64,000 nt of DNA from Salinispira sp. Its GTDB lineage: Bacteria > Spirochaetota > Spirochaetia > DSM-27196 > Salinispiraceae. The notes under the pieces were generated by a model. That model did no database searches. It was given only the letters and a program-made list of their open reading frames with translations, and was not told where the DNA came from. The stretch covers positions 192,001 through 256,000 of the forward strand of contig CBDDDG010000010.1 of assembly GCA_965226555.1 (NCBI GenBank), in the 5' to 3' direction. The translations under genes and the position numbers were made by a program. This document shows, one piece after another, positions 4,922-58,499 of the stretch. How positions within the stretch are numbered: the stretch's first letter is position 1; each line of letters begins with the position of its first letter.

Positions 4922-4945
4922 CCTCCTGATGAAAAAATAATTTTA

Positions 4946-4998
4946 GAAAGTTTTGCATTGGAAAATTACGCTTGCACAATTTCAGTAGCAAAACATTG
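4946..4998. repeat. Palindromic mini-element, long form (53 bp), flanked by TTTTA direct repeats
   Basis: gaaagttttgcattggaaaattacgcttgcacaatttcagtagcaaaacattg; TTTTA at 4941-4945 and 4999-5003. Confidence 0.85.
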
Positions 4999-5096
4999 TT
5001 TTAGTTATTGTAGAATAATCAGAATAATTGAGTCAAGAACAAAAAAATTCAGATTGTCTCTGATCAGTCGTTGCCAAACAGGAATAATTACGGGTA

Positions 5097-5696
5097 TTAA
5101 AATCGCACATCAGCACGTTCAATAATTTTCTTAATTTCCCTGCTCCCGATCCACGCTTTTATGTTAGTCTCAATGTGTATGAGCTCCATATCAACCTGAT
5201 ACAGTATGGCCTTTGTTCCCTCTATTTGATCAGTTACGGAAGATATTGTACCAATTATTATATAATCCGCCCCTGTTTCCTGACCAATGCGCTTCAGGCT
5301 TTCAAGATTTGCCTCCGACTGCTGATCGACACGCTCTCCGCGGATCTCTCCCCGTTCTTCGGCGCTGGCAACAAGGCTGACTAAACCTGAATTGATAAAT
5401 TCACGCTCAATATCTTTTGTAAAAACACGGGTTTCAATATGCTCACTGGAACGGTTACGAATGGAACCCACAATGAGCACCGGAGCCCGGCTTTCTCTCT
5501 CATGAAATTGATCTATCCAAGGGCGAGAAAGACTGTCAGATATCATTTCTTCTGCAACTAATTTTGAATCAGTATCATTCCAGCGTCCCGATAAATCTGT
5601 AACCGTATCGGCATCAGTACGGGTTACCTGTACAGTGCTACAGGAAGCAAGAAAGAAAAAAGCAGAGCAAAGAATAAGTAATTGTTTCATATTCAC
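5097..5696 (-). CDS. lpoB: Penicillin-binding protein activator LpoB-family lipoprotein
   Basis: Lipobox LASC; DLSGRWNDTDS, NRSSEHI and GADY..G.I motifs. Confidence 0.8.
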   Translation of the reverse strand: MNMKQLLILCSAFFFLASCSTVQVTRTDADTVTDLSGRWNDTDSKLVAEEMISDSLSRPWIDQFHERESRAPVLIVGSIRNRSSEHIETRVFTKDIEREFINSGLVSLVASAEERGEIRGERVDQQSEANLESLKRIGQETGADYIIIGTISSVTDQIEGTKAILYQVDMELIHIETNIKAWIGSREIKKIIERADVRF

Positions 5697-5744
5697 CTCA
5701 CATATTACATATGTTAATTTATTTCTCTAATTTATAACCTGCGG

Positions 5745-8238: not shown

Positions 8239-8263
8239 GAAAGTTTTCCAATGCAAAACTTTC
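8239..8263. repeat. Palindromic mini-element, short form
   Basis: gaaagttttccaatgcaaaactttc; same arms as the other copies; no clear direct repeat. Confidence 0.65.
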
Positions 8264-18555: not shown

Positions 18556-18681
18556 GAAACTTTTGCATTGGAAAATTGTGCAAGCACAATTTCCAGTAGC
18601 AAAAGTTTCAAATTTGGAATGCTTTCTTTGTGCTTAGCATTCTCCAATTTTATAGAAAGTTTTGCCTCTGGCAAAACTTTG
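18556..18681. mobile_element. Composite palindromic mini-element (long hairpin + 45 bp spacer + short hairpin), 126 bp
   Basis: Flanks TTTCT/CTTCT; spacer homologous to that of 48559-48656; disrupts the Rpn frame. Confidence 0.8.
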
Positions 18682-19574
18682 CTTCTAATTGATTCATTAA
18701 CGTGTCTAAATCTATAACAATTCCAAACATAGAATCTACCACGCCGACAAATTCCTTTATCAGCTCCAGCGATTCCTCATTCAGCATTTCTGCTATCGCG
18801 TTCTCCACCTTCCGAATGTCCCAATCCGTATTCAGCAGATTTTTCGAGTACAGATCAAGGTACATAACAGCCGCAAACATTCTTCCCCGCTGCTGCAGCT
18901 GCTCCGCAGAATAATCGCTCTCACTTATCAGAGCATAAGGAAAGGGGGCAAGATACTGCGGGAATTCCCGCTTCCGTTGCTCTCTGACGTTCCCGGGCAC
19001 CTTCCATTTTCGCGTACCATTATAGAACACAATGGGAAGAAATACCAACTCGCAGTCATCGGGAATTGCACCGGAGCGGTGAATGTTCCGATAGAGAAGG
19101 TTTGTGTACTCTGACATGCGGAGGGGCATGTCGTTGTCCACTCCAGACTGATGCTCAAGGAGCACATAGATAGCAACATCTCCCGTATGATCCCGACTTC
19201 TGATTTTGCAGACGATGTCGGCCATTCGTGTTTTCGCATGGTCAATGAAAAAGGTACCGTTTTCGATGGTGATGTCTTCACGGCGCAATTTTTTCGTCCA
19301 TGCGCCTCCGACAAAGCGTTGAAGAAATTGGAGCATTATTGCGGGTTGGAACAGCAGGGAGCGGTAGCCTTGGTCGTAGGGAACGGGGGCGGGTTTTTCT
19401 TTGAAATCGATCATATAATCCTCCTGAAGGTTTTTTTTGAACCTTTCTTTCTGAATAGGGGAGCTCCCATGGCGACATGGTCCCATGGTGAATTCTCTCC
19501 TCTATATCTGTGACGGGTAAACTGTCATTTTTGATTGTGTTTTTGGAAATAATTTGCAAAAAGTTTTGCTACTG

Positions 19575-19819
19575 AATATAGCTTTTCGGTCGGGGTCTGA
19601 CAGGAAGGGGGCGCTGACAACGAGAGCGCAGAGAAGGTTCTTTTTTCCTGCAATGTAGCTGGGGGTTTCAATGCGGATTTTGTCCATGTCCAGCTTGGCA
19701 AGCGTTGTATCCTCACAGAACAGCCGCAGCAGGTCGAGAATCATCCGGGGGGTTCTGTAGTAGGCGATCTTGAAGGCTATGTCGTGGATGTGGCCTGTGC
19801 TGTGGGATGATTTTTTCAT
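19575..19819 (-). pseudogene. Truncated Rpn N-terminus (copy B)
   Basis: MKKSSHSTGHIHDIAFK...; near-identical to 21165-21390; ends at a half palindrome (19557-19576). Confidence 0.8.
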
Positions 19820-20206: not shown

Positions 20207-20260
20207 CAAAGTTTTGCTACTGAAAATTGTGCTTGCACAATTTTCCAATGCAAAAGTTTC
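20207..20260. repeat. Palindromic mini-element, long form (54 bp)
   Basis: caaagttttgctactgaaaattgtgcttgcacaattttccaatgcaaaagtttc; flanks TATTA/TATTG. Confidence 0.85.
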
Positions 20261-20307: not shown

Positions 20308-21390
20308 TTACTGCGATCCGTTCCGCACTGTCCGCATTTCCTCATCGCTCAGCCCCGTAATTCTCTGAACAGCCTTGGTCGACAACCCTTCCAAAAACAT
20401 ACTGCGGGCGTTTTTTCTCCGCTCCTCAATATGCCCCTCAGCACGACCTGTTCGCAGTCCTTTCAGAATGCCCTCAGCCCGGCCCTTTGTGATACCCTGC
20501 TCAAGACCCTCAATCCGGCCCTTCGCAATGCCTTTCTGACATACGTTGGTAATATTATATTCCCATACTGTTTTCTCCTACTGAAACTTTTGCATTGGAA
20601 AATTGTGCAGAGCCTTCCCTCACGAAGGCGTTGGTTATGTTATATGTCCGCATACTGTTTTCTCCTTCAGGATATAGTTCCCTGTCAATTTTCTCAAACT
20701 GTTCATACAGTCCCAAGTCCTTCAGGTAACCTAGCACACTCTCTGCCAGATCAGTAAAGTCTTGTGAAGACAAACCGTTCAGGAGCTGCGCAATCTCTTT
20801 CAGCCCCTCAGCATCCATTTCATTGTCTCGCATTATATACCACAACGCAGTCGATGTATATCGTTTTCCATCGAAACGCCATGCCAACTGCCTCTTGTCC
20901 ATTCGCCTCAGATCGCGCACAATGTACGATACTCTCGCCCTGACATCTACCGTGCCTTCGGTAAGGGATTCGGAAGCAGCATTTCCATGCGAACTATAAA
21001 ATGTGAGTGGGAGGTTCCATTCCTTTTTTCCATGGTAGAGCAGCAGTATATAGATAGCATCATTTTCATTGTACACATTGCTGTTTCTGAGGGCATGCTG
21101 ATAATTATCGATCTGTGCGAGAGCCTGTTTGTGCTGGTAGCTTTTATGTTCAATAATAAAAAGAGCTTTCCGCTCGGGGTCAGACAGGAAGGGGGCGCTG
21201 ACAACGAGATCGCAGTGAAGGTGCAATGTAGCTGGGGATATCAATGCGGATTTTATCCATGTCCAGCTTGGACAGCGTTGTATCCTCTCAGAACAGCCGC
21301 CAGGTCGGGAATCATCCGGGGGGTTCTGTAGTAGGCGATCTTGAAGGTTATGTCGTGGATGTGGTCTGTGCACTGGGATGATTTTGTCAT
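20308..21390 (-). pseudogene. Rpn/YhgA-like nuclease (copy A), multiply frameshifted, with duplicated C-terminal start
   Basis: HIHDITFK, CDLVV, FIIEHKS, LLYHG..W; 3' end closely matches 18207-18350; half palindrome at 20583-20608. Confidence 0.8.
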
Positions 21391-22574: not shown

Positions 22575-22628
22575 GAAACCTTTGCATTGGAAAATTGTGC
22601 TCTGCAAAATTTCCAGTAGCACAATTTA
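22575..22628. repeat. Palindromic mini-element, long variant
   Basis: gaaacctttgcattggaaaattgtgctctgcaaaatttccagtagcacaattt; overlaps the stop codon of the adjacent ORF. Confidence 0.8.
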
Positions 22629-26828: not shown

Positions 26829-26853
26829 GAAACTTTATCAATTCAAAACTTTG
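26829..26853. repeat. Palindromic mini-element, 25 bp, flanked by CATTA direct repeats
   Basis: CATTA at 26824-26828 and 26854-26858. Confidence 0.75.
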
Positions 26854-30087: not shown

Positions 30088-30114
30088 CAAAATTTTGCAT
30101 TTTGTAAAACTTTA
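30088..30114. repeat. Palindromic mini-element, short form, upstream of hsdM
   Basis: Core ttttgcattttgtaaaacttt identical to 38701-38721. Confidence 0.7.
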
Positions 30115-38695: not shown

Positions 38696-38721
38696 GAAAC
38701 TTTTGCATTTTGTAAAACTTT
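38696..38721. repeat. Palindromic mini-element interrupted at its end by IS3
   Basis: gaaacttttgcattttgtaaaacttt, with the final c at 39990 beyond the IS. Confidence 0.75.
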
Positions 38722-38784: not shown

Positions 38785-39069
38785 ATGGAAACACGGAAAG
38801 TCAGAAAATTCTATGATGAGGATTTTAAGGAACAGGCTGTGGAGCTTGCCAAAGAAATTGGCACGAAGCAGGCGACGGAAAAGCTGGGTATAGCAAGTTA
38901 TCATACCCTCGCGAAATGGGTTCGGAACGACCAGAAAGGTCCCGAGTTTCGGGAACTTCAGGAAGCCCTGGCCGAGAACAAACGATTGAGAAAGGAACTG
39001 CGCGCCGAGAAAAAGGCGGTGGCAATACTCAATGATGCAATGGTTTTTTTTGCAGAAAGGAGAACCTGA
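38785..39069 (+). CDS. IS3 OrfA
   Basis: YDEDFKEQAVEL HTH plus leucine-zipper-like tail. Confidence 0.9.
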   Translation: METRKVRKFYDEDFKEQAVELAKEIGTKQATEKLGIASYHTLAKWVRNDQKGPEFRELQEALAENKRLRKELRAEKKAVAILNDAMVFFAERRT

Positions 39070-39955: not shown

Positions 39956-40005
39956 CGGATTGTCCGAATTTTCGAAGCAAGATCACTTTCACATAGAATA
40001 ACCCC

Positions 40006-46800: not shown

Positions 46801-47245
46801 AAGCAGAAGCAAAAAAAACCTGACGCAGGGCAGGAAGTTTTCCGAGATGATCGAAACGGCGCTCAAGAAGTATCGGAACCGAACCATAGAAGCTGCCGAG
46901 ATTATTCAGGAGCTCATTGACATAGCCATAGAAATGCGGGAGTCCGAACAGCGGGGCGCCGATCTTGGTCTGAGCGATAATGAAATAGCCTTCTACGATG
47001 CCCTTGCCGATAATGGCAGCGCTCGGGAAATAATGGGCGATAAAAAACTCAGAACAATTGCCCAACTGCTCACCGACATGGTGAATAACAACGTATCCAT
47101 CGACTGGATAATAAAAGAAAGCGCGCGGGCGCGGCTGCGAACCATGGTGAAGCGGCTGCTAAACCAATACGGCTACCCGCCCGATCTGCAGAAATCGGCA
47201 ACAGAGCTGGTCATTGAACAGGCAGAACGATTCGCCGAGGATTAG
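43850..47245 (+). CDS. hsdR: Type I R-M restriction subunit with a P/Q/A/G repeat insertion
   Basis: RPDVVLFVNG...IELK, HTQGSGKS, DEAH, FTGTP, TGFD, QAIARVNR. Confidence 0.96.
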   Translation: MTTLYESDIEELAIELLRQQGYTYIAPDQQETERDSTAEVILKPRLQQAIHDLNPNLPDMVKTQAMRQVTDLSSAQVAETNANFYKMLIEGVPEEYQQNNNTVGARLRLIDFENAANNDFAVCNQFSVKENRTTRRPDVVLFVNGLPMGVIELKNPADEKATIHSAFVQLQNYKHSIPTLFRYNGILVASDGLNAQAGSLTAGEARFMAWKTVDGTFEDPATTPQLETLIKGMLRPAVLLDIIRYFTVFETTGREDPKTGTIATEKEKKIAAYHQYHAVKKAVSSTIRAAGAAPQLGAPQIGSAQPQPGTAQPQLGTAQPGTAQPQLGTAQPGTAQPQPGAAPQPGTAQPQPGAAPQPGTAQPQPPATETHEDPEAYGLPGVKSQPAGDRKAGVLWHTQGSGKSLSMLFYAGLLVIDRRMANPTIVIITDRNNLDEQLFEAFTAGKDLLRQEPVRAKNRRQLKNLLTTLGGGVVFSTIQKFSPEDDSEEFDVLSERENIVVIADEAHRSQYGFGAKTHFVKDGAKTRYGFAKYLRDALPRASFVGFTGTPIEKDDASTPAVFGNYIDIYDIEQAVKDGATVPIYYESRLARVHLKEEYTEELDAEIEEIVENRELDDAERAKAKSARQEAIIGHEDRLRTVVADILQHFAERRDACQGKAMIVTTSRRIAVAMYADIISLRPHWHNQNADKGAVKIVMTSSSSDPPEWQQHSTTKDEKTAIRKRFVIPEDSLQMVIVCDMWLTGFDAPCLDTLYIDKIMSGHNLMQAIARVNRVYKDKAGGLIVDYIGIASNLKRALAAYTQNGGRGSPALKQEDAVKLMLEKYDVAANLFAGFNYKPYFTADTAGKLTIILEAQEHILALENGRERFSQAVYLLARAFAMSVPSAAAMNIKAEVGFFQAVRARLIKFEPTGSGKSTVEMETAIRQIVDKALAADGVIDIFDAAGIKKPDVSILSDDFLAEIRGMRHKNLALALLKKILNNEIRSRSKKNLTQGRKFSEMIETALKKYRNRTIEAAEIIQELIDIAIEMRESEQRGADLGLSDNEIAFYDALADNGSAREIMGDKKLRTIAQLLTDMVNNNVSIDWIIKESARARLRTMVKRLLNQYGYPPDLQKSATELVIEQAERFAED
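44719..44948 (+). repeat. In-frame VNTR of 15/18/21 bp units within hsdR
   Basis: Repeated cagccccaacccggcaccgcg / gctgccccccaacccggc. Confidence 0.92.
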
Positions 47246-47338
47246 ACGAACTCAAGAAATAGTTCCGTAGTAGATGTATGTAAGAAATTCGCTTATGAAT
47301 TAAGAATTTGTGATACAAAAAATGCTGAAGTAGATTGT

Positions 47339-47782
47339 ATGGAACTGTCGTTGACACAATATGAAGCAGATACCTTATTTGCTCTGGAAAAACATCACAG
47401 AGAAACTGAGTCATACACATTTCCAAGTCTTGGCGGAAGAATAAATATTCCCTTATATTTTGAAGATAGTAGCGAGAAATTCCATATGGATATAACTCGG
47501 AGTCGAATAGAACTCAAGAAATATACCTTCCAAAACCGTGTGCGTAAAACCATTGCATTAGTTAGAATAGATATACATGGCCCGCCACATCGGAATCCAG
47601 ATGGAGAAGAAATTCCATGTCCTCATATGCACAAATATCGCGAAAAATGGGGCGATAAATGGGCGGAACCTTTACCAAATATATTTAGTGAAATATCAGA
47701 TACATGGCAAACACTTGAGCATTTTATGCAATTCTGCAATATTAAAACTAAGCCGGAAATCATAGGGGATTTGTTTACATGA
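47339..47782 (+). CDS. DUF6978-like protein
   Basis: LVRIDI.GPPHRNPDGEEIPCPHMHKY.E.WGDKWA. Confidence 0.7.
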   Translation: MELSLTQYEADTLFALEKHHRETESYTFPSLGGRINIPLYFEDSSEKFHMDITRSRIELKKYTFQNRVRKTIALVRIDIHGPPHRNPDGEEIPCPHMHKYREKWGDKWAEPLPNIFSEISDTWQTLEHFMQFCNIKTKPEIIGDLFT

Positions 47783-48549
47783 TCATTAATGAAATAGAAC
47801 ATATTCTACAGGATTATACTAACTGGCTTAAAGATAAGACCGTACTGAAACAAATTGATGCGCGCTGGATTGAAATTACCACGCCGTATCTCGACCGCCA
47901 CAATGACTATCTCCAAATATATGCCCGGAAAGATGGAAATAAGTTTGTTTTAACCGATGACGGATACATAATACATGACCTAATCAATTCAGGATGTTCT
48001 CTGAATTCCCCAAAACGCCAGCAATTGCTTCATACAACATTGAATGGATTTGGCATACACATGAAAGATGAACAATTAATTGTGCATAGCGATCCTGAAG
48101 AATTTTCTCAGAAGAAACACAATATCATTCAAGCAATGCTCTCGGTAAATGACCTTTTCTATCTGGCATCACCATATATTGAAAATCTATTCCTTGAAGA
48201 TGTTACAAAATGGCTTGATATATCCAACATACGGTATACCCCAAATTTAAAGTTTGCGGGAAAAAGCGGATATGATCATGTGTTTAATTTCGTTATTCCT
48301 AAATCAAGAAAACAACCAGAGCGCATTGTGCAAACATTGACAAATCCAAAGAAGAATAATGCTGAAAATTTGGTGTTCAAGTGGCTGGATACGCGGGAAA
48401 TGCGATCGGCAGAGTCAGAACTATTCGCCGTCCTAAACGATGGGGATAATGGAATTTCTCATGGTGTTGCGGAAGCATTCAAACGCTATGACATAATACC
48501 AATGGCATGGTCAGAAAGAGAAAATAATCAGGAGAGATTGGCGGGTTAA
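47779..48549 (+). CDS. DUF1828/DUF1829-like protein
   Basis: ITTPYLDRHND...LTDDG; GKSG..H.FNFVIP; coupled to the upstream gene. Confidence 0.75.
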   Translation: MIINEIEHILQDYTNWLKDKTVLKQIDARWIEITTPYLDRHNDYLQIYARKDGNKFVLTDDGYIIHDLINSGCSLNSPKRQQLLHTTLNGFGIHMKDEQLIVHSDPEEFSQKKHNIIQAMLSVNDLFYLASPYIENLFLEDVTKWLDISNIRYTPNLKFAGKSGYDHVFNFVIPKSRKQPERIVQTLTNPKKNNAENLVFKWLDTREMRSAESELFAVLNDGDNGISHGVAEAFKRYDIIPMAWSERENNQERLAG

Positions 48550-48558
48550 TGAATATGA

Positions 48559-48656
48559 CAAAGTTTTGCAGAATGCAAAACTTTCTACAAAATGCGAGAA
48601 TGCTCAGCACATAGAGTCATTCAAAATGTGAAACTTTTGCAAAATGCAAAAGTTTC
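48559..48656. mobile_element. Composite palindromic mini-element (98 bp) flanked by TATGA direct repeats
   Basis: Two 27 bp hairpins around a 44 bp spacer; TATGA at 48554-48558 and 48657-48661. Confidence 0.8.
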
Positions 48657-48711
48657 TATGATCATATCACCGGCTATTCCGTTCCCAAAAAACAGCCGTT
48701 GTAATAATATA

Positions 48712-48785
48712 TGGGCCCAGTAGGACTTGAACCTACGACCAATGGATTATGAGTCCACTGCTCTAACCAACTGAGCTATGGGCCC
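48712..48785 (-). tRNA. tRNA with CAT anticodon, most likely tRNA-Ile2 (lysidine); CCA not encoded
   Basis: GGGCCCA acceptor stem; TAGCTCAGTTGGTTAGAGC D arm; GGACTCATAATCC anticodon arm; GGTTCAAGTCC T arm. Confidence 0.9.
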
Positions 48786-48923
48786 GCAGTAATAAAAAGT
48801 ATCCGAATTATCGGCATTACTGTCAATCCTCGAAAATATTTTATCCAATACCCTTTGCATACATATTTTTGTTTGATATAATGATGACTTGTTGTGTTGT
48901 AAAGACACATAAAAGGAGGCTTT

Positions 48924-50564
48924 ATGAAAAAAGTAATAGCCAAAAAAATAATAGCCATACTTGTGTTCACACTTGTATGTTCAATGATCGTAAGCGCAGG
49001 CGGAGATGCGGAAAGCTCTGCATCGGAGTCAGTATCGGAAATGGTGCTGAACTGGAACCTTGCGGCGGATCCGAAAACACTCGACCCAGGCCTAGCCGGA
49101 GCGACTGATGAAGGCGATATTATTGCCAATACCTTTGAGGGTCTTATCAGGGAGCGCGGCGGAATAGTTGAGCCGGGTATTGCCGAAAGTTGGGAAATTT
49201 CTCCCGATGGACAGACGGTTACCTTCAATCTCCGCAGATCACAATGGTCAGACGGCTCCGATCTCACTGCCGATGACTTCGTCTATTCCTGGAAACGGGC
49301 AATTGATCCTGCAACAGCTGCAGAATACAGCTGGATCTGGAAATATACAAATGTTGTGAATGCAGATGACGCAACTTTAGGCAAAGTTTCACCAGACAGT
49401 GTCGGTGTACGGGCCATTGATGACTATACCCTTGAGGTAAAACTCATTGCGCCCACTCCCTACATTATCTCACTAACATCGTTCTACCACTTCATGCCGG
49501 TAAAGCAGTCTGCCGTTGAGGCAGGTCCTGAAGGCGCATGGGCAAAAGACCCCGAACTCTATGTTTCAAACGGTCCCTTCGTGCTGACATCGTACACAAT
49601 TGGAGATGGGCTCACTCTGGAGAAGAACCCCAATTTCTGGAATGCAGGTAATGTCAGTATTGATATGATAAACGTTAAGTTTATTGATGAATCCCCTACC
49701 GCGTACACCGCCTATGAGGCCGGCGAATTCGACTTTCTCAACGATGTTCCTCCTGCGGAAATCCCCCGCCTTGTTGCTGAAAACCCTGAATTCCACATTT
49801 TCCCCCTGCTTGGAACCTACTACTATAACTTCAACATGGATCTGCCTCGCTGGCAGGATCCGCTCGTGCGCAGGGCGCTCACCCTTTCCATTGACAGGGA
49901 GCAGATTGTCGAAGTGCTCGCACGCGGTAATGTACCCGCTCCGGGCTTTGTTCCTCCGGGTTTCCGTGATAATGATGGACGCGACTTTTTCGAAACTGCC
50001 GGAAACTACGGCATTATGACCGATAATTCGCAGTTCGCTGAAGCGCGCAGTCTTCTCGCTGAAGCCGGATATCCGAACGGAGAAGGATTTCCGAAGTTCA
50101 CCCTCATATACAACACCAGTGATGGGCATAAGCTTGTCGCTGAAATAATTCAGGAAGCATGGAAAACCAACCTCGGTATCGAAATTGACCTCGAAAACCA
50201 GGAATGGGCTGTATTTCAGGAAACCCGAAGACAGGGCGACTACGAACTGTCGCGCGGCGGCTGGCTAACAGACTTCTTGGATCCCAGCGGTCTGCTCGCC
50301 ATTTTTGAGACGGACAATAACTATAATGATCCCAACTTCGATAACTCCGCCTTCAACGAAGCAATGAAGCGCTCCCGCGAAGCTCCCGGCACTGCAGAGC
50401 ATTTCAATGCCCTCTATGAGGCGCAGGAAATTCTTATGACCGAGCTGCCTGTTATTCCGGTGTATCACTACACCGATTACATGCTCTCAAGTCCTCATGT
50501 CAAAGGATGGGAACGGAGTCTGCTGAGCGGAACTGATTTCCGCTATGCGACTGTCGAACGCTAA
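48924..50564 (+). CDS. oppA: Oligopeptide ABC transporter substrate-binding protein
   Basis: DPKTLDP, PGIAESWEISPDG..TFNLR, SNGPF. Confidence 0.93.
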   Translation: MKKVIAKKIIAILVFTLVCSMIVSAGGDAESSASESVSEMVLNWNLAADPKTLDPGLAGATDEGDIIANTFEGLIRERGGIVEPGIAESWEISPDGQTVTFNLRRSQWSDGSDLTADDFVYSWKRAIDPATAAEYSWIWKYTNVVNADDATLGKVSPDSVGVRAIDDYTLEVKLIAPTPYIISLTSFYHFMPVKQSAVEAGPEGAWAKDPELYVSNGPFVLTSYTIGDGLTLEKNPNFWNAGNVSIDMINVKFIDESPTAYTAYEAGEFDFLNDVPPAEIPRLVAENPEFHIFPLLGTYYYNFNMDLPRWQDPLVRRALTLSIDREQIVEVLARGNVPAPGFVPPGFRDNDGRDFFETAGNYGIMTDNSQFAEARSLLAEAGYPNGEGFPKFTLIYNTSDGHKLVAEIIQEAWKTNLGIEIDLENQEWAVFQETRRQGDYELSRGGWLTDFLDPSGLLAIFETDNNYNDPNFDNSAFNEAMKRSREAPGTAEHFNALYEAQEILMTELPVIPVYHYTDYMLSSPHVKGWERSLLSGTDFRYATVER

Positions 50565-50666
50565 ATTGTCGATTGGCGCCGATTGCGCCGAATTCCGATA
50601 TTTTGTCGGAATGATGTTCAGGCGCCGGCGGCAGGGTCATTGCTGCCGGTTGTCCTGCCTATTTGT

Positions 50667-50776
50667 GTAGCCCGCAGCGTGCGGCAGCGGCTTGGTATTA
50701 CTCTGTGTAACCCTCCTTATAAGATTGTAGCCCGCAGTATGCGGCGCTACTGCTGCTGCCGCACGCTGCGGGCTAT
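50667..50776. repeat. Cluster of three GTAG-type REP-like palindromes (two direct, one inverted)
   Basis: gtagcccgcagcgtgcggc at 50667; gtagcccgcagtatgcggc at 50727; inverted copy at 50755-50776. Confidence 0.65.
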
Positions 50777-50803
50777 GTAAACGTGCTGCCCGGAGGAAAT
50801 TGT

Positions 50804-51733
50804 ATGGTCAAGTATTTTCTTAAGCGCCTCGCGTATTCGCTTTTTACCATCTTCGTTATAATTACGGTACTTTTTTTCGTGCTCCGCTCCATACCGGGCG
50901 GTCCCTTCACCCGGGAAAGAGCCATTCCCGATGAAATTCTCCGTATTATTGAACAAAAATATAACCTTGATCTCCCCCTGTATCAGCAGTATTTCAATTA
51001 TCTTAAGGGACTCATTACCTTTGATTTCGGCCCCTCGTATCAGAAAATTGGGACAAGCGTAAACGATATTATTGAGGCGGGCTTCCCGAACACTGCGCGT
51101 GTCGGCTTTTTTGCCGTTTTGTTTATTATCATTGTCGGAATACCGGTGGGCATTATCTCTGCCCTCAAAATGGGCAAGCCTGTGGACTATATGGTCATGT
51201 TTATGGCCACACTCGGCGTAACTCTGCCGAGTTTTGTTGTGGCAACACTGTTCATTCATTTATTCGCCGGAAAACTTGACTGGGTTCCTCCCTTCGGCAT
51301 AGGCCTTCCCGCCGGTTATATTGGTCCTGTGCTCGCGCTGTCGGGTTATTCTCTGTCCTTCGTGGCGCGTCTTACCCGATCCAGTATGCTTGAAGTACTC
51401 CGTGCCGACTACATTCAGACAGCTCGGGCAAATGGTCTCAGCGAATTTTCTGTTATTGTCAAACATGCGGTGAAAAACGCCATTATTCCTGTCATTACCT
51501 ACATGGGACCAACCATAGCAACTATTCTGACCGGCTCCTTCGTTGTTGAGAGGATATTTGCCATTCCGGGAATTGGGCGCTATTTTGTGGAAAGCGTCAC
51601 CAACAGAGATTACACAACCTATATGGCAGTAACCATTCTTTTTGCCGTCTTTTATGTGTTTATGATTCTTCTGGTGGATATTGCCTACGCGCTTGTTGAC
51701 CCGAGAATTCGTTTTGAAAAGGAAAAGGGGTAG
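50804..51733 (+). CDS. oppB: Oligopeptide ABC permease
   Basis: PGGPF, DFGPS, RSSMLEVL..DYI.TARANGL. Confidence 0.93.
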   Translation: MVKYFLKRLAYSLFTIFVIITVLFFVLRSIPGGPFTRERAIPDEILRIIEQKYNLDLPLYQQYFNYLKGLITFDFGPSYQKIGTSVNDIIEAGFPNTARVGFFAVLFIIIVGIPVGIISALKMGKPVDYMVMFMATLGVTLPSFVVATLFIHLFAGKLDWVPPFGIGLPAGYIGPVLALSGYSLSFVARLTRSSMLEVLRADYIQTARANGLSEFSVIVKHAVKNAIIPVITYMGPTIATILTGSFVVERIFAIPGIGRYFVESVTNRDYTTYMAVTILFAVFYVFMILLVDIAYALVDPRIRFEKEKG

Positions 51734-51736
51734 GCT

Positions 51737-52942
51737 ATGGAGTCACATGATGCGGCGCATTTTGATGCGGCACTTTTTGAAAGAGCATACCAGCAGGCCG
51801 AAAGCGAGCCTGTCCGAGAAAGTCTCACCTACTGGCAGGATGCGTGGAGAAGGCTGAAAACCCACAAGCCGGCCATCGCGGGCCTCCTTGGTGTTATTTT
51901 CATTATATGCTTCGCGGTCTTCGGCCCCCTCTTTTCGTCTGTCTCCTATTCCGATCAGGCAATCGATTTTGCAAATCTTCCTCCCCGTCTCAGTATTTAC
52001 GAACTCGAAAAAGATCTCTTTGTCTTCCTCAACGCCGACTACAAGCTCATTCAGGTCTCGCAGCGCGGCGACATTCTTTCCCGTTTTGAACGAATTGAAC
52101 AGGATAACATTAACAAAATCTATGTCTACAGCAATGGCATTCATGACGTAACTCTGGACTTTTCCTACAACCTCCTGCCGGACAAAATGGACAGCCCCTT
52201 CGACTACAGCTTCATGTACCGAGGGAAGGAATACACCGAGGTAAGCCGGCGGGTACGGAACAGAACCTACCCCTTCGGAACCGACATTGTCGGCCGGAGC
52301 CTCCTTGTGCGTCTCATGGACGGCGCCCGCATTTCCCTCATGGTGGCCTTCGTTGCAAGCCTCGTGAACCTGCTCATCGGCGTTCTCTACGGTTCAATAG
52401 CGGCCTATGAAGGCGGACAAACGGATATTATCATGATGCGCATTGTCGACATACTCAACTCAATTCCTCTTGTGCTCTATGTTATTCTCATTAGGGTCAT
52501 TGCCGGCAACAGGGGACTGTGGACAATGATTTTCGCGCTCGGATCAGTCTACTGGGTTATTATGGCCCGGCTTGTCCGCGGACAGGTGCTCAGCCTCAAG
52601 GATCAGGAATTTGTTCTGGCTGCCCGCGCTCTTGGGGTTCCCCGTCTGCAAATTATTGTTAGGCATCTCATTCCGAACGCCATCGGGCCAATTATCGTGT
52701 CAATGACCATGATGATCCCCACGGCAGTGTTCACCGAAGCCTTTATCAGCTTCATTGGTCTGGGAGTATCGGCGCCCACGGCGTCCTGGGGAACCCTCGC
52801 GAACGATGCCCTCGGCAGCCTTCTGTCCTACCCCTATCAGCTTTTGTATCCTATTTTTGCCATAGCCATTACCATGCTGTCGTTCAACCTGCTTGGCGAT
52901 GGATTGCGGGATGCGCTGGACCCGCGTTTGAGAAAGGGCTGA
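51737..52942 (+). CDS. oppC: Oligopeptide ABC permease
   Basis: GTDIVGR, EFVLAARALG, GDGLRDALDP. Confidence 0.93.
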   Translation: MESHDAAHFDAALFERAYQQAESEPVRESLTYWQDAWRRLKTHKPAIAGLLGVIFIICFAVFGPLFSSVSYSDQAIDFANLPPRLSIYELEKDLFVFLNADYKLIQVSQRGDILSRFERIEQDNINKIYVYSNGIHDVTLDFSYNLLPDKMDSPFDYSFMYRGKEYTEVSRRVRNRTYPFGTDIVGRSLLVRLMDGARISLMVAFVASLVNLLIGVLYGSIAAYEGGQTDIIMMRIVDILNSIPLVLYVILIRVIAGNRGLWTMIFALGSVYWVIMARLVRGQVLSLKDQEFVLAARALGVPRLQIIVRHLIPNAIGPIIVSMTMMIPTAVFTEAFISFIGLGVSAPTASWGTLANDALGSLLSYPYQLLYPIFAIAITMLSFNLLGDGLRDALDPRLRKG

Positions 52943-52955
52943 GGGGAGTAATGGA

Positions 52956-53963
52956 ATGAAAGCCCTGCTGGACGTCAGGAATCTTGAAACATCGTTTTAC
53001 ACCCATCTCGGTGAAATTCAGGCTGTGCGGGGCGCCAGCTTTGACCTCGAAGAAGGTGAGGTTCTTGGAATAGTTGGAGAGTCGGGAAGCGGTAAGAGTG
53101 TTACCGCCCTTTCCATTATGGGACTTATCCAGAACCCGGGGAAAATAAAAAACGGCACCATTACATTCCAGAATCAGGAACTTACCGCCCTGAGCACTAA
53201 GGAAATGTCCATGCTCAGGGGCAGCGATATCTCCATGATCTTCCAGGACCCCATGACCTCGCTCAACCCTGTGTATTCCATTGAAAACCAGATGATAGAG
53301 GTTATCCGCCGGCATCAGAAGCTGAAAAAACATGAAGCCCGCGAACGCGCGGTACATATGCTCAACCTTGTCGGCATACCCCACCCCAAAAAACGGATCA
53401 AAAACTATCCGCACGAGTTCTCGGGGGGAATGCGGCAGCGTGTCATGATCGCCACCGCCCTGAGCTGCAACCCGAAACTCCTCATTGCAGATGAACCAAC
53501 CACCGCTCTCGATGTTACTATTCAAGCGCAGATTCTTGAGCTTATGCGGGACCTCAAGGAGCGCATAAAAACCTCCATCATCATTATTACCCATGATCTC
53601 GGAGTGATCGCCGAAGTCTGCAATTACATTGTCGTTATGTATGGCGGAACCATCATGGAGACCGGAACAGAAAAGGATATTTTTTATAATCCGCAGAATC
53701 CTTACACAATCGGCCTTCATCAGTCCATACCCAAACCAACTGAAAAAGAAAAGCAGCGCCTCATTCCGATCACCGGCACTCCGCCCGATCTCCTTCATCC
53801 TCCTGCCGGCTGTCCCTTTGCTGCGCGCTGTCCCCATGCAATGAAAATATGTCTTGAAAAACGTCCTCCGAGTTTCAAACTATCGGATACTCATACCTCC
53901 GCATGCTGGCTCCTTCATTCCGAAGCTCCAACGGCGGCACCATACACGAATAAAGTTTCATGA
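52956..53963 (+). CDS. oppD: Oligopeptide ABC ATPase
   Basis: [20 protein letters not shown]. Confidence 0.93.
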
Positions 53964-53972
53964 AGGGAGAAG

Positions 53973-54953
53973 TTGATCATGAGTGAAGATTTACTGGCAG
54001 TTAAAGGACTGAAAAAATATTTTCCCGTAGACAGCCGCATTTTCCGCCGTAATCAGTCCTGGCTTAAGGCGGTTGATGGTGTGGATATCACGATTAAACG
54101 GGGTGAAACTTTCGGGCTTGTCGGGGAATCGGGCTGCGGAAAATCGACAACAGGCCGTACCATTCTCCGGCTCTATGAAGCGAGCAGCGGTAAAATCTTC
54201 TTCGATGGACAGGATATCACCAGTCTTGATGAAAAGAAACTCAAACCCTTTCGCAAGCGCATGCAGATGATTTTTCAGGATCCCTACGCAAGCCTCAACG
54301 GAAGAATGACCGTAAACGATATTATCGGAGAAGGAATAAGCATTCATCATCTCAGTGAAGGACGTGAAAAGCAGGAACGAATCTATGATCTGCTGTCTTA
54401 TGTCGGCCTCAAAAAAGAGCATGCCAACCGCTACCCCCACGAATTTTCCGGCGGACAGCGCCAGCGCATCGGCATTGCCCGGGCACTGGCTGTTGAACCC
54501 GAGCTGATAATATGCGATGAACCCATTTCTGCGCTGGATGTCTCAATTCAGGCTCAGGTCGTGAACATGCTGGAAGACCTCCAAGATGAATTGGGCCTCA
54601 CATATCTGTTCATTGCCCATGATCTTTCCATGGTAAAACACATTTCCAACCGCATCGGGGTTATGTATTTAGGTAAGCTGGTGGAGGTCTGTGAAAGCGG
54701 CGAACTGTACCGGAATCCGATGCACCCCTACACGAAGGCCCTGCTCTCGGCCATCCCCATTCCTGATCCTGATGTAACCAGAAATAACAAGCGAATCATT
54801 CTCAAGGGAGAGGTAACAAGCCCCATTGATCCGCCGAAAGGATGCCGCTTCGCCTCACGCTGTCCCCTGAAGACTGATCGCTGCACCGAAGAATCTCCCG
54901 ATCTGCGGGAACGTGCGCCGGGGCATTTCGTATCGTGCCATAACGTTGGCTGA
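53973..54953 (+). CDS. oppF: Oligopeptide ABC ATPase
   Basis: [20 protein letters not shown]. Confidence 0.93.
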
Positions 54954-55168
54954 GCGGCGGGCACGGGGCGCTGGTGATCGGCAATTACCGTGAATAATTG
55001 GAATTTCCTGTCGGGACAGTTTTTGCCGGAAGCCATATAAGGGTTCAATAGCCGCTGAGGGCTATGGGTTATGAAACTAATCATTTACCATGTCACCATC
55101 AATGTGTTTGGAAAGAATTTTGCAAAATTGTGAATTTTTTCGGGGCGGGCGGGGAGATGGAGTCTGCT

Positions 55169-55232
55169 CAAATGTTTATTTCCAATAAAATTCATGTAAG
55201 TAGTTGATATTTCAGATACTTTGTGGTAACCT
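55169..55232 (+). promoter_or_regulatory. CAAATGTTTATTTCC motif plus sigma70-type promoter
   Basis: Motif at 55169-55183; TTGATA (55204)-N17-TAACCT (55227) with TG extension. Confidence 0.6.
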
Positions 55233-55272
55233 TTGTATAAGGTTTCAGTGCGTATCTGCAATGAAACATAGA

Positions 55273-55299
55273 CAAAGTTTTGCAAAATGCAAAACTTTC
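55273..55299. repeat. Palindromic mini-element, 27 bp, flanked by TAGA
   Basis: caaagttttgcaaaatgcaaaactttc. Confidence 0.8.
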
Positions 55300-55334
55300 T
55301 AGAGACAAATATTTTTAGAGAAAGAGGTATTAGT

Positions 55335-56612
55335 ATGATGTTTACTTTTAATCCACTACGAAAGTTATGGGGAGGGTTTCCTGGTTTTGTTGCAATAATC
55401 GTGATTCTCATCGCCTTACTTGCTGGATGTCCAATGCCGGAACCAACTCCTGACTCCGAGCCCATGACGGAACCCGAGCCCATGCCGGAACCCGAGCCCA
55501 TGACGGAAGCAACCCCTCCAAGCACCATGGATGCTCCCGCGATCACCGTTGGACACACCCAGCTCACCGCGACATGGAGCCCCCCCAACAATGACGGCGG
55601 CAGTGAAATTACTGCGTACCATGTGCAGCACAAAATAAGCGCCGCAGAATGGCCAGAGGACGACACAACGGACACCGCCATTATCAGTGATACTACTATC
55701 ACAAGCCACCCCATTACCGGGCTGATAAATGGCAACGTCTACGATGTGCGGGTGCGCGCGGTCAACATGCAGGGCAATGGGGTTTGGTCTGAACACGCAT
55801 CAGCAATGTTGCCGATTCCTGTGACACAGACTCCTGCGGGTACGGCAGCGACGGTAAGCCTATCGGCTGCCGCGCGAGCCATTATTGCCGATGAGAGCCC
55901 AACCGTTACGTTGACCATCGTGGAACAGGGTACCCTCGCGGTTAGTGCATCAGGAGTCAGTATCACTCCCGCAACTACGCCCGCAGGGCTTACCGTTCCG
56001 ACAGTTGATTCGGGTACCGGCATGGTTACGGTTGCTGCGGATACAACGGCAGGGACATATCTGGTATATGGCGAAACCGGAACAGGAGATATACTCTTTG
56101 CTGAATATTTCTTTGTTACCGTGAGTCCTCAAGATAAAACCGAACTGCAAGCAATAGTAACTGCGGCGATAGGAAACATCAACGATGCTAATGATTCTGG
56201 AATCTGGGGCGATACTGCCAATCTCAACTACATTATTACTACGGCAGTAACGGATATGTCCAATATGTTCCAGAGTGCAAGTGCATTCAATGGCGATATC
56301 TCGGGCTGGGATGTCAGCGCGGTAACGACTATGCGGTCGATGTTCTTTCAGGCAAGCACATTCAATAGCGATATCACCGGCTGGGATGTCAGCGCGGTAA
56401 CGGATATAGCTTGGATGTTCTATCAGGCAAGCGCATTCAATCGCGATCTTGAGGAGTGGAAGGATCATTGGACACTCAGTGATAACAAATACACCCTTGG
56501 CAAATACACCGGAGCAAAAGGCGGTATGTTTTTGTTTTCCGGCGTGGTGACGAATACGGACGGGTCGGATATGAGTAAGCCTACAGGTGTGGGTGCTCCG
56601 TCATGGTATTAG
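55335..56612 (+). CDS. Surface lipoprotein: PE-rich linker, Fn3 domain, DUF285/BspA-like repeats
   Basis: Lipobox LLAGC; WSPP..DGGSEITAY...YDVRVRAVN; FNGDISGWDVSAVT.M..MF repeats. Confidence 0.85.
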   Translation: MMFTFNPLRKLWGGFPGFVAIIVILIALLAGCPMPEPTPDSEPMTEPEPMPEPEPMTEATPPSTMDAPAITVGHTQLTATWSPPNNDGGSEITAYHVQHKISAAEWPEDDTTDTAIISDTTITSHPITGLINGNVYDVRVRAVNMQGNGVWSEHASAMLPIPVTQTPAGTAATVSLSAAARAIIADESPTVTLTIVEQGTLAVSASGVSITPATTPAGLTVPTVDSGTGMVTVAADTTAGTYLVYGETGTGDILFAEYFFVTVSPQDKTELQAIVTAAIGNINDANDSGIWGDTANLNYIITTAVTDMSNMFQSASAFNGDISGWDVSAVTTMRSMFFQASTFNSDITGWDVSAVTDIAWMFYQASAFNRDLEEWKDHWTLSDNKYTLGKYTGAKGGMFLFSGVVTNTDGSDMSKPTGVGAPSWY

Positions 56613-57549
56613 GAGCAGTTTTATAGCCCGCAGTAACTCTCGAATTTTTATCAATTTTTTTAAGGGGACATTCATCGGTATCGCAAATGTTATTCCCGGC
56701 GTAAGCGGGGGAACAATTGCCGTCATTACCGGTGTATATGAACCGCTTGTGGGCTTTTTCGGCACATCGCTGAACCGTGAGTGGCCGGGCAAATTCCGAA
56801 ACATTATGCCCCTGCTCTTTCCCGTTATGTTTGGCATGTTCGCGGGCATTCTTCTGCTGGCCAACCTCATTGACAGCCTCTTTCTAGTTGCGCCATCGCA
56901 AATTCAGTTCTTTTTCATAGGGCTTATTCTCGGAAGCGCTCCATATGTTGCGAAGCAGGGCAGCAAAAATCAGTTCAAAATCTCATATCTCATAGTCTTT
57001 CTCCTCGCAGCCGCCCTGATCATATGGATGGGCATACGGGCGCGGGAAATGGGCGACCGTTCTACCCTCATTGACACCCAGAACATCATCAGAACACTGA
57101 CCCCCCTCAACGCTGTCATCATCATCAGCACCGGAATACTCACTTCTGCCACCATGCTCATGCCGGGAGTAAGCGGCGCCTTTATTATGGTACTCATTGG
57201 CATGTATGCGACCTACATTGTCATGATTGAGGAACTGAACTTTCCCATTATCCTCACCTTTCTTACCGGCGCAATTGCCGGGCTCTTTCTCTGCGCGAAA
57301 ATCATTTCCACGCTTCTGAATAAATTCCATGGACACAGTTACTACACCATTCTCGGGCTCATGATCGGCTCCATATCCTTCCTCTGGCCGGGGCTGAGTT
57401 TCAATGTATCCGACATTGTCTCAGTCATCGCCTGCCTCGGAGGTTTCCTGCTTGCCTTTTTTCTCAGCAATGGTCACAAAAATGATGACCACCGATATCG
57501 CAGTCAGAACCATCGGATCAGCCAATCGGAAACGGAGAGTAAGCAATGA
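56587..57549 (+). CDS. DUF368-family membrane protein (start uncertain)
   Basis: Two PGVSG motifs (ANVIPGVSGGT, MPGVSGA). Confidence 0.85.
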   Translation: MWVLRHGIRSSFIARSNSRIFINFFKGTFIGIANVIPGVSGGTIAVITGVYEPLVGFFGTSLNREWPGKFRNIMPLLFPVMFGMFAGILLLANLIDSLFLVAPSQIQFFFIGLILGSAPYVAKQGSKNQFKISYLIVFLLAAALIIWMGIRAREMGDRSTLIDTQNIIRTLTPLNAVIIISTGILTSATMLMPGVSGAFIMVLIGMYATYIVMIEELNFPIILTFLTGAIAGLFLCAKIISTLLNKFHGHSYYTILGLMIGSISFLWPGLSFNVSDIVSVIACLGGFLLAFFLSNGHKNDDHRYRSQNHRISQSETESKQ

Positions 57550-58445
57550 GCAGCGAAAAAAACAAAACACACATACTTCGAAAGACAGCCCTGACAATTG
57601 TCATAATTGTCATACTCTGGCAGGCAGCCCGATTAATTACCGGCATTGTTGTTCCTCCCTTTCCGCCGCATCCTCTGCAGGAAAAACCAATGACAGTTAT
57701 CGCGCATCAGGGGGGGAAGAATCTCCTTCCCGAAAATACCCTGCCGGCCTTTGAGAACGCGCTCCGGGTCGGCGCAGATGCGCTCGAAATGGATGTTCAC
57801 CTCACGAAGGACGGACATCTTGTCGTTATTCATGATGATACTGTCGACCGCACAACAAACGGAAGCGGCAGCGTTGCCGAGTTCAGCCTCCGTGAGCTGA
57901 AGGAACTGGATGCTGCCTACCGATGGCAGGAAGGCGATAATTTTCCCTACCGCGGACAGGGCATACGCATTCCGACCCTGACGGAAATTCTTGAGCAATT
58001 TCCCGACACCATAAAAATTATTGAAATGAAACCGGATGACCCTAACATTGCGGCAGCTCTTGGAACCATGCTCAGGGAATGGGAACAGGATGAGCTTGTC
58101 ATTGTCGGTTCTTTCCACATCGATATCCTGAAACGTTTTCGCAGGAATTATCCTGAATTTATGACCAGCGCAGGATTAAATGAGGTTGCCCGATTTTTTG
58201 TTATGAATCATCTTGGTTTTTCTGGAAGTTATCCCTTCCACTTCGGTTTTTTTCAGGTGCCTGTGCAGTATGGACCGCTGAAGGTTGTTACATCTTCATT
58301 CATTAAAAACGCGCAGAGAAATAACATCATTGTTCAGGCATGGACTATTAATGATCCCGATGAAATGCGTGAACTGCTGAATATGGGAATTAACGGTATT
58401 ATTACCGATGACCCTGAAACACTCAAAATGATTTCAGAACAATAA
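57546..58445 (+). CDS. Glycerophosphodiester phosphodiesterase
   Basis: IAHQGG, PENTL, EMDV..TKDG..V.HD..VDRTT, GIITD.P. Confidence 0.92.
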   Translation: MSSEKNKTHILRKTALTIVIIVILWQAARLITGIVVPPFPPHPLQEKPMTVIAHQGGKNLLPENTLPAFENALRVGADALEMDVHLTKDGHLVVIHDDTVDRTTNGSGSVAEFSLRELKELDAAYRWQEGDNFPYRGQGIRIPTLTEILEQFPDTIKIIEMKPDDPNIAAALGTMLREWEQDELVIVGSFHIDILKRFRRNYPEFMTSAGLNEVARFFVMNHLGFSGSYPFHFGFFQVPVQYGPLKVVTSSFIKNAQRNNIIVQAWTINDPDEMRELLNMGINGIITDDPETLKMISEQ

Positions 58446-58484
58446 CAAAGTTTTGCTACTGAAAATTTTGCTCTCAAAAGTTTC
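58446..58484. repeat. Palindromic mini-element, 39 bp, flanked by AATAA direct repeats
   Basis: AATAA at 58441-58445 and 58485-58489. Confidence 0.8.
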
Positions 58485-58499
58485 AATAAGGAAAGAGAT

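Follow-up and report, generated by a model that had tools for sequence, protein, structure and literature searches.

An IS5-type miniature element family in Salinispira sp. and its probable decay into REP-sized hairpins

Short hairpins in the window and across the genome

We analyzed a 64,000-nucleotide stretch of a Salinispira sp. genome (the window; contig CBDDDG010000010.1, positions 192,001 to 256,000) in which small palindromes lie within and between genes. A sequence-only reading had listed 13 such loci, and all are present (Table 1), with sizes of 25, 25, 26/27, 27, 27, 39, 53, 54, 54, 98, and 126 bp plus two half copies. At the Rfam gathering score, the sole match in the window was one tRNA, and the hairpins had no match.

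Table 1. Copies of the hairpin family, and one insertion sequence, in window coordinates
Feature	Position	Strand	Flanks and context
53-bp hairpin, long module only, right arm decayed	4946..4998	+	exact 5-bp duplication TTTTA
Collapsed copy, 25 bp	8239..8263	-	flanks 3/5, no duplication; right flank runs on into spacer-like element sequence
Full-length master, 126 bp (54-bp hairpin, 45-bp spacer, 27-bp hairpin)	18556..18681	+	interrupts Rpn-like gene; flanks TTTCT/CTTCT
Half copy, lone decayed arm	19559..19576	not assigned	
54-bp copy	20207..20260	-	flanks TATTA/TATTG
Truncated master, left half	20583..20613	+	within Rpn-like gene
54-bp copy	22575..22628	+	no duplication; identical paralogous copy on contig C17
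Decayed 25-bp copy	26829..26853	+	exact duplication CATTA
Decayed 27-bp copy, C18T variant	30088..30114	+	no duplication
27-bp copy, C18T variant	38696..38721	+	right arm split by IS3-family element; last base of copy at 39990
IS3-family element	38722-39985		4-bp CTTT repeat; sits in right arm of copy 38696
98-bp form (27 + 44 + 27)	48559..48656	-	exact duplication TATGA
27-bp copy	55273..55299	-	no in-register 5-bp duplication; 4-bp TAGA only
39-bp copy, between GDPD and ROK genes	58446..58484	-	exact duplication AATAA

The 11-bp arms occur in 1,068 exact copies genome-wide, compared with 1 to 28 for seven permuted control motifs, and the hairpin family comprises 563 loci, or 1.2% of the 3-Mb genome (assembly 93.5% complete). 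Its 393 two-ended loci are 20 to 309 bp long, have terminal inverted repeats of 11 to 12 bp, and encode no transposase gene. Copies are AT-rich, number in the hundreds, are mostly intergenic, and also form tandem arrays; some insertions lie inside genes. Forms of 27 to 126 bp fold into strong single-strand hairpins, with z scores of -4 to -7 (-7.4 for the master at 18556). Placement beside ribosome-binding sites was weak (19 versus 9 of 195), and frame-preserving size selection inside genes was rejected (0/93 copies with length plus 5 divisible by 3 in a long open reading frame).

A search of 60 related genomes for the arm pattern had no match, nor did searches of the seven family genomes for the 98-mer or of metagenome contigs for a 23-bp pattern. 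The one match among species genomes is on a contig labelled Anderseniella, but at 94.8% identity to G000 this contig probably comes from a close relative and was mis-binned. A search of mostly open-access article texts found no earlier description of the family.

Target-site duplications and empty sites

Exact 5-bp direct repeats flank 75 of the 393 two-ended loci, against a permutation mean of 3.6 (maximum 8 in 200 permutations). With copies in duplicated DNA left out, 195 independent copies remained, of which 60 had such a duplication, where 2.2 were expected (maximum 8 in 1,000). Repeats of 3 bp (9 versus 10.6) and 4 bp (8 versus 4.8, maximum 12) were not in excess among the two-ended loci; those of 2 bp were slightly above permutation (59 versus 44, maximum 56), as would be expected from TAnTA targets. 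The 75 duplications comprise 45 different 5-mers, and the outer ends carry no fixed tag. As a control, 27-bp modules embedded in composites had an exact 5-mer of their own in 3/136 cases, compared with 25/99 solo copies. Pairs of arms separated by more than 300 bp showed no excess (0 to 1.7%, the background rate), so the idea of long elements, or of genes captured between far-apart arms, was rejected.

In the window, the four exact flanks reported earlier are real: 4 of 11 two-ended copies have them against 0.12 expected, and none of 200,000 draws reached four. The 4-bp TAGA at 55273, in contrast, is within chance. So is the 4/5-matching class genome-wide (23/195 versus 14.4, maximum 26), which we rejected as stand-alone evidence, but both window cases are backed by empty paralogous sites. 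At 18556, 18 such sites have one 5-mer each (TTTCT in 13, TTTGT in 5). The paralogous site of 20207 has seven empty alleles (TATTA in four, TATTG in three), a 125-bp allele exactly flanked by TATTA on both sides, and further shortened alleles.

More generally, empty sites hold a single 5-mer, and a 5-bp gap was found in 18 of the 23 paralogous site families that have a short allele. Between strains, contig L006, which matches over 2.2 kb at 94.8% identity, carries a 126-mer with a GAATA duplication, and its G000 counterpart at C16:26710 is empty. These results bear out the proposal of a non-autonomous, modular, mobile family whose members insert at cuts staggered by 5 bp and which is neither an operator nor a REP. 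In a comparison of window positions 44000-63900 with four sequencing runs, two runs contained ~95%-identical relatives; among the pieces and joints listed for those, none bridged an element site. In run X4, possibly the source sample, one contig covers the 58446 copy and agrees with it at every base.

A resident IS5-family element as likely partner

No transposase with matching ends lies in the window, as the sequence-only reading had stated, but an IS5-family element elsewhere in the genome has them. This element is 1,340 bp long and present in six intact copies, the nearest 8.7 kb before the window. It ends in GAAACCTTTGCA and GAAAC(C/T)TTTGAA, and exact 5-bp duplications flank 7 of the 10 copies in which both ends are present. 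Its transposase matches NF033581 (228 bits; cut-off, 140) and contains DUF772 and DDE_Tnp_1 domains; a 338-amino-acid frame with the DDE motifs is kept in seven copies, one of them at G000 C18:62320-63333. Searches for close homologues yielded at best 38% identity in the phylum sample, 38% over near-full length in metagenomes, and 46% in plasmids, the last to ISAba23. No solved structure was found for the transposase.

The arms of the hairpin family match the left end of this element at 11/12 bp and one right-end variant at 10/11, and the left 12 bp of the window copy at 22575 are identical to that left end. The likeness is limited to about 12 terminal bp. Ends of seven other multi-copy insertion sequence types and of a third IS5 type match the arms less well. 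The seven targets of the partner score 4.0 on the target matrix of the hairpins (random, -3.3; 0 of 20,000 draws that high), whereas five targets of a second IS5 element score just 0.2. The resident IS5 element thus has ends nearly identical to those of the hairpins, also duplicates 5 bp, and prefers the same TAWTA-type targets. A match to the ends of a known insertion sequence family was what the sequence-only reading had named as the mark of an ordinary MITE, and the hairpins are most likely an IS5-type MITE family that is ordinary in kind though undescribed. From these sequence comparisons, the resident DDE transposase likely moves master forms of ~100 to 170 bp in trans. Two insertion sequences in the window were rejected as mobilisers: the IS3 element has TGATC ends and is itself inserted into a copy, and an IS481-like fragment has TGGGA-type ends.

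Similar ends are known elsewhere. The first 13 bp at the left end of ISAba23 (IS5, NF033581 type) are identical to those of the resident element, and one of two copies examined has a 5-bp repeat; a homologue in G246, from the spirochaete phylum, has 5-bp duplications in 3/3 copies. ISPg1 (IS1126), ISPg4, and ISNme1 have closely similar 12-bp ends in Table 2 of PMC4596501. NF033581-type elements (ISAba23, ISPg1/IS1126, and ISNme1) are autonomous and 1.2 to 1.4 kb long, whereas the window hairpins encode nothing and match them at the terminal 11 to 12 bp only. As described in PMC4596501 and PMC2575886, MITEPgRS (MITE464) and BrickBuilt of Porphyromonas gingivalis and ATR of Neisseria are likewise non-autonomous; their ends belong to the same IS5 clade, and their interiors are modular, built of repeats, and variable in length. 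They number about 10 to 20 copies of hundreds of base pairs, compared with about 560 loci here, and in the window family the interior modules are further pairs of the terminal repeat itself.

Master elements, shrunken forms, and alternative readings

Masters follow the layout arm-interior-arm, 45-bp spacer, arm-interior-arm, with exchangeable interiors of 32 or 5 bp; the ~126-bp form consists of a 54-bp hairpin, the spacer, and a 27-bp hairpin. The outer-left arm is C-type in 65 of 70 masters and the inner-left arm G-type in 64 of 70. Forms of 25 to 55 bp retain the master's outer arms: among those with exact duplications, C/G hybrids account for 10/15 of the 25- to 28-mers and 11/16 of the 52- to 56-mers, and intact single modules for 1/15 and 1/16, respectively. 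Solo 27-mers are more decayed than their counterparts in composites (perfect arms in 23/79 versus 37/43), and C at position 5 is found in 36/62 solos versus 3/43 modules in composites (p = 4e-8). Paralogues display allele series at the same site: empty/54/126, empty/73/125, and, at window position 20207, empty/54/125.

The explanation that we consider probable is a MITE family of ~560 loci, with 11- to 12-bp terminal inverted repeats and 5-bp duplications, whose ~100- to 170-bp masters are likely moved by the resident IS5-family transposase and whose 20- to 55-bp forms are likely immobile scars of deletions between internally repeated arms. The transposase would bind the outer arms, cut sites resembling W-W-C-TAWTA-G-W-W with a 5-bp stagger, and place the element there. 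Left and right arms are each present twice in direct orientation within hairpin-rich sequence, and slippage or recombination could therefore remove the middle, sparing the outer arms and the duplication and giving the series of 98, 73, 54, 40, 27, 25, and 20 bp. The 39-bp copy at 58446 looks like a long module that has lost the sequence between its outer and inner arm. Mobility would be retained from about 98 bp upward, the smallest forms being mostly immobile. Counted in favor of this explanation are identical 98-mers at two unrelated sites: the copy at 48559 is 100% identical to C10:117265-117362, which has TAATA/TATTA flanks.

The evidence thus favors a larger mobile unit than the one proposed earlier, which was smaller than typical MITEs. 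The usual size of bacterial MITEs is given as 50 to 1,000 bp in PMC4596501, a range that includes the 54- to 170-bp forms but not those of 20 to 46 bp, read here as remnants. These remnants reach 20 to 27 bp with a perfect duplication, below the minimum of 41 to 49 bp in a MITE-Tracker census (PMC11602168), a floor that may be a limit of the tool. The family is unusual in its copy number and its full decay series, from 126 bp down to 20 bp, and paralogues that carry empty, full-length, or shortened alleles of one site would, on this reading, be a clean example of how MITEs can decay to REP-sized palindromes. Such remnants resemble operators, and MITE finders would probably overlook them. The natural series of 126, 98, 54, and 27 bp, together with an intact transposase, offers ready substrates for determining the minimum length that an IS5 enzyme can move.

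Solo 27-mers are most likely deletion scars rather than the smallest mobile elements. It is unlikely, though worth weighing, that the 27- and 54-bp hairpins transpose themselves as "ends-only" units, the 126-bp form being two such units plus 45 bp of captured DNA. On this reading, which we hold doubtful, the IS5-family transposase would directly excise and reinsert 27-bp hairpins, each a pair of 11-bp repeats separated by 5 bp, and new composite MITEs would start where neighboring units capture the DNA that lies between them. Among unique copies of ≤28 bp, 15/53 have exact duplications, and one 27-mer is identical at nine unrelated sites, five of them exactly duplicated; but repeated collapse of one master also gives identical 27-mers. 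The C18T variant occurs in 13/79 solos and 0/43 modules in composites, the mirror change in only 3/79 (p = 0.02), and the variant could mark a lineage of self-copying 27-mers. A G-type left arm is found in 26/79 solos, for which extended homology was rejected as the source (flanks ending in ATA/GTA in 8/26 versus 10/36, p = 1). A target-like TTATA/TTGTA stands at the spacer end before the inner arm. At 20207, the interior of the 54-mer is flipped relative to the 125-bp allele; the 54-mer is therefore not the product of a one-step deletion. Against independent movement stand the hybrid outer arms, the decay of solos, the long alleles at the same sites (none was found for any 27-mer), and the near absence of a duplication proper to modules in composites. 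The scar reading also presumes that 27 bp is too short for synapsis of transposon ends; a literature search found no published minimum spacing of ends and no source for a 27-bp limit. There is precedent for a DDE enzyme, PiggyMac, acting on 26- to 28-bp DNA in Paramecium, whose IESs are remnants of transposons that have inverted ends and have shortened to about 27 bp (mode, 28 bp; PMC4132734). This is an analogy only: a domesticated transposase excises the IESs at each sexual cycle, whereas any excision or movement of the 27-mers here is hypothetical. If the 27-mer does move, it would be the smallest transposable element known in bacteria and a bacterial parallel to the 26- to 28-bp ciliate IESs, and the lower size limit of bacterial transposons would need revision.

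That the family belongs to a related IS5-clade element, either lost or in the unassembled part of the genome, with the resident element cross-mobilising it at most, seems improbable. The right end of the hairpins is often C rather than the partner's G (47/70 masters; 5/13 exactly duplicated 120- to 128-mers), and a related, now lost IS5 could therefore be the real mobiliser. Internal similarity to the resident element is absent, and the assembly is incomplete. The terminal base is variable within the clade, being A or G in relatives from other genomes. However, the target preference fits the resident element, and neither tblastn nor a listing of all arm contexts revealed an IS5 relic with closer ends.

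The earlier suggestion that Rpn/YhgA-like PD-(D/E)XK nucleases (about 140 genes in the genome) spread the hairpins by nicking or cutting them is already largely refuted, and we give it very little credence. Copies do cluster around these genes, 155/393 two-ended loci lying in or within 300 bp of Rpn-like sequence, which makes up 9.9% of the genome. However, neither unique copies (18/195) nor unique copies with exact duplications (3/60) are enriched there, and the surplus stems mostly from sites common to paralogues; a looser grouping, in which 52/238 site families are near Rpn, leaves up to about a 2-fold excess. According to PMC10400941, rpn genes show neither inverted repeats nor target duplications, and transposase activity is deemed highly unlikely. 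The elements interrupt Rpn genes and do not bound them, distant arm pairs show no excess of duplications, and the genome encodes an IS5-family transposase whose element fits the hairpins in ends and target preference. Extra copies would arise passively as insertion-bearing Rpn genes duplicate.

REP, REPIN, and PATE elements are not known to make target duplications and typically carry a fixed short tag at the end. Spread of REP/REPIN- or PATE-like hairpins by an HUH (Y1) enzyme would suit the strong single-strand hairpins and the hundreds of mostly intergenic copies, but it is contradicted by the 5-bp duplications, the single-5-mer empty sites, and the untagged, diverse outer ends, and is hardly credible. 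REP/REPIN/BIME sequences served by RAYT are alike in size (21 to 65 bp, PMC3184786), hairpin shape, abundance between genes, and tandem arrays; unlike them, the window family is AT-rich and has IS5-type ends, and Y1_Tnp (PF01797) had 0 matches in the 93.5%-complete assembly, which led us to reject a RAYT/Y1 partner. Least probable of all are operator-like transcription factor binding sites conserved in place: short palindromes do lie upstream of genes, but the family had no match in the 60 related genomes, some insertions are inside genes, and presence varies among paralogues and between strains, with empty sites that refute the idea.

Five-base-pair duplications and empty sites

The sequence-only reading had listed 13 palindrome loci in the window, and all 13 are present where it placed them. 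In the 2.98-Mb source assembly, G000 (window, C10:192001-256000), the terminal inverted repeat SAAASTTTTGC, here called the arm, occurs 1,068 times, versus 1 to 28 times for seven permuted control motifs. The arms group into 563 loci covering 36 kb (1.2% of the genome), 393 of which are two-ended. Exact 5-bp flanking repeats are found at 75 of these 393 (permutation mean, 3.6; maximum, 8), with the signal maximal precisely where the arms end; repeats of 3 and 4 bp at the same loci show no excess over permutation. Collapsing copies with common flanks left 195 unique copies, 60 of them with exact 5-bp repeats (2.2 expected; maximum of 8 in 1,000 permutations), the excess over a null that the sequence-only reading had proposed looking for. 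Flanks matching at 4/5 positions are within chance among the unique copies (23 versus 14.4 expected; maximum, 26). Within the window, 4 of 11 copies have exact repeats (0.12 expected). The symmetrised target is T77 A52 W70 T52 A77, with C before and G after in 48%. In nine cases, copies arranged head to tail lie exactly 5 bp apart, and each other gap from 0 to 12 bp occurs at most once.

Empty sites with a single 5-mer, another proposed check, were also seen. A survey of 326 elements (67 of the 393 were left out for element-like flanks) gave 238 site families, of which 23 include a short allele, with a modal gap of 5 bp in 18 families, 6 bp in 3, and 7 bp in 2. Among the 18, the empty 5-mer equals both flanks in 5 families and matches one flank or both in 13. 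The paralogous alleles of window site 20207 number 15: seven empty (TATTA in four, TATTG in three), two with 11 bp, one of 125 bp with an exact TATTA duplication, three of 54 to 55 bp, and two truncated. The 4/5 flanks of the 20207 copy thus reflect a mosaic of both empty-site types. A contig of a close relative, L006, carries a 126-mer with a GAATA duplication, and the corresponding G000 site is empty. None of 60 related genomes yielded the MITE family, which thus looks lineage-specific among those searched. L006 (JBPCVV010000235.1; 94.8% identity to G000 across 2.2 kb) bears DUF285-like repeats in addition to this MITE and lies in a MAG labelled Anderseniella, in which it is likely misbinned.

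A probable IS5-family partner

The multicopy proteins of the genome were clustered into eight IS types, whose ends were then read. One 1,340-bp IS starts GAAACCTTTGCA, and its other end is the reverse of GAAAC(C/T)TTTGAA; window copy 22575 begins with the exact 12-mer found at the start of this IS. Ten copies are two-ended (six full length), seven of them with exact 5-bp duplications (e.g., TTATA, TAATA, TATTA, and TCATA), and eight more are right-end fragments. Its 338-amino-acid transposase, intact in seven copies, belongs to the IS5 family (DUF772 and DDE_Tnp_1 domains; NF033581 at 228 bits); the best named relative, ISAba23, has 46% identity and the same first 13 bp. The earlier statement that no transposase with matching ends lies in the window holds, the nearest copy being 8.7 kb before it, but the genome does contain an IS5 match. 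On the MITE target matrix, the seven partner targets, scored out of sample, average 4.0, compared with 3.0 for the MITE itself (scored in sample) and -3.3 for random flanks; none of 20,000 draws scored as high as the partner targets. Another IS5 element, whose ends are less similar, has targets averaging 0.2.

Two observations count against this partnership: similarity ends after ∼12 bp, and the right terminal base of the MITE is often C. Partner homologues in another spirochaete-phylum genome (G246) end in A and have 5-bp repeats, which suggests that variation at the terminal base may be tolerated. ISPg1, ISNme1, and their MITEs have similar ends, according to Table 2 of PMC4596501. The family behaves like an IS5-type MITE and agrees with one on every testable criterion; since its ends match the IS5 family, it is most likely an ordinary MITE rather than the unit, smaller than typical MITEs, first envisaged. 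The closest known systems are the IS5-type MITEs MITEPgRS, BrickBuilt, and ATR (PMC4596501 and PMC2575886). High MITE loads are reported in spirochaetes (PMC11602168, where an enriched cluster averages 145 per genome), and the REP size range is that of PMC3184786. A search of mostly non-subscription literature found no published description of this family.

Rpn/YhgA-like genes and other repeats

The 3-Mb genome has at least 140 Transposase_31 (Rpn/YhgA-like) matches, with 47 of the genes in one single-linkage group (≥92% identity); PMC10400941 quotes 26 rpn genes for a Bacillus strain, far fewer than here, and argues for a role of Rpn proteins as toxin-antitoxin nucleases, which are unlikely to be transposases. 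Rpn-like sequence occupies 9.9% of the genome, and 155 of the 393 loci lie in or near it, as do only 18 of the 195 unique copies and 3 of the 60 unique exact-duplication copies. The density at Rpn genes is mostly the same few sites copied along with the genes, and the idea that these genes mobilise the element was not borne out. With both-flank grouping, 52 of 238 site families lie in or near Rpn, so a modest enrichment may exist.

DUF285/BspA-like surface-repeat ORFs, a family typical of host-associated bacteria, form the largest paralogue family of the genome.

Repeats, IS elements, and genes in the window (W) and on contigs of the assembly
Feature	Location	Description
Partner IS, nearest copy	C10:181971-183310	
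Third, decayed IS5-type element	C6:2470-3500; C21:309864-311102	Different MITE insertions in the two copies, each site empty in the other; C6 copy also carries nested IS5 and IS982 insertions
Rpn/YhgA-like genes	W:18207-21373; W:42891-43850	Many of the genome's Rpn/YhgA-like genes are split by MITE insertions
DUF285/BspA-like surface-repeat ORF	W:55287-56612	One of ∼169
GC-rich dispersed repeat	Genome-wide, e.g., C21:294636-294803	Core GGGCTGGTCG; 164 copies; often 3' of Rpn genes; also cargo in 168-bp MITE forms
Type I restriction-modification/defence region	W:30118-48549	Also AAA, HNH, DUF1828/1829, Rpn gene
IS3-family element	W:38722-39985	Within the defence region; splits a 27-bp element in its right arm, with 4-bp CTTT repeat; 11 near-identical copies genome-wide
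HsdR (type I restriction subunit) repeat	W:44729-44956	Proline/glutamine-rich tandem repeat inserted into the HsdR reading frame
IS481-like element	C1:18297-19548	404 aa; 19 copies; TGGGATATAAACC ends; long, variable flanking direct repeats (∼12-17 bp)
IS481-like fragment	W:21617-22496	
ATP:guanido phosphotransferase gene	W:14120-15214	McsB/arginine-kinase-like

Element anatomy and the 25- to 55-bp forms

The commonest long form, or master, is 126 bp and comprises a 54-bp module (arm, 32-bp inner hairpin, arm), a 45-bp spacer hairpin, and a 27-bp module (arm, 5-bp loop, arm), with a three-hairpin fold (z = -7.4). Exchangeable interiors give forms of 98/99, 126, and 153 bp, as well as 168-bp forms containing one additional insert; the spacer, too, occurs in a second type. 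Duplications are not in excess for arm pairs separated by >300 bp, and there is accordingly no sign of a gene-carrying form. In 70 masters, each of the four arms is specific to its position: the outer left is GAAAC-type (C-type) in 65 and the inner left GAAAG-type (G-type) in 64, and the outer right has a terminal G in 47 and a terminal C in 14.

Collapse of masters by deletion between internal arm repeats would leave short forms with the master's outer arms. C/G hybrids account for 10 of 15 exact-duplication 25- to 28-mers (besides one intact short module, two both C-type, and two ambiguous) and for 11 of 16 exact-duplication 52- to 56-mers (besides one intact long module). Among dereplicated ATTYT-loop copies, C at position 5 occurs in 36/62 solo 27-mers versus 3/43 within composites, and perfect arms in 23/79 versus 37/43. 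Exact duplications are commoner at 102 to 130 bp (13/23) than at ≤28 bp (15/53) or 48 to 60 bp (17/55), and long and short alleles share sites (54 versus 126, 73 versus 125, and 54 versus 125 bp). The 39-, 25-, and 20-bp forms are read, from their sequences, as probable deletions between internal repeats.

The alternative, that the 27-bp hairpin is itself a mobile unit, draws on three observations that count against collapse: no 27-bp site in the site-family survey has a long allele, the left arm is G-type in 26/79 solos, and C18T occurs in 13/79 solos versus 0/43 composites (mirror change, 3). A homology-based explanation of the G-type solos failed. DNA of 27 bp may be too short for normal synapsis; we found no literature source for this limit, and Paramecium IESs of 26 to 28 bp (PMC4132734) show that it is not absolute. 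We consider independent mobility of the 27-bp hairpin improbable. Because the 98-mer of the window recurs unchanged at an unrelated site, forms of this size probably still move.
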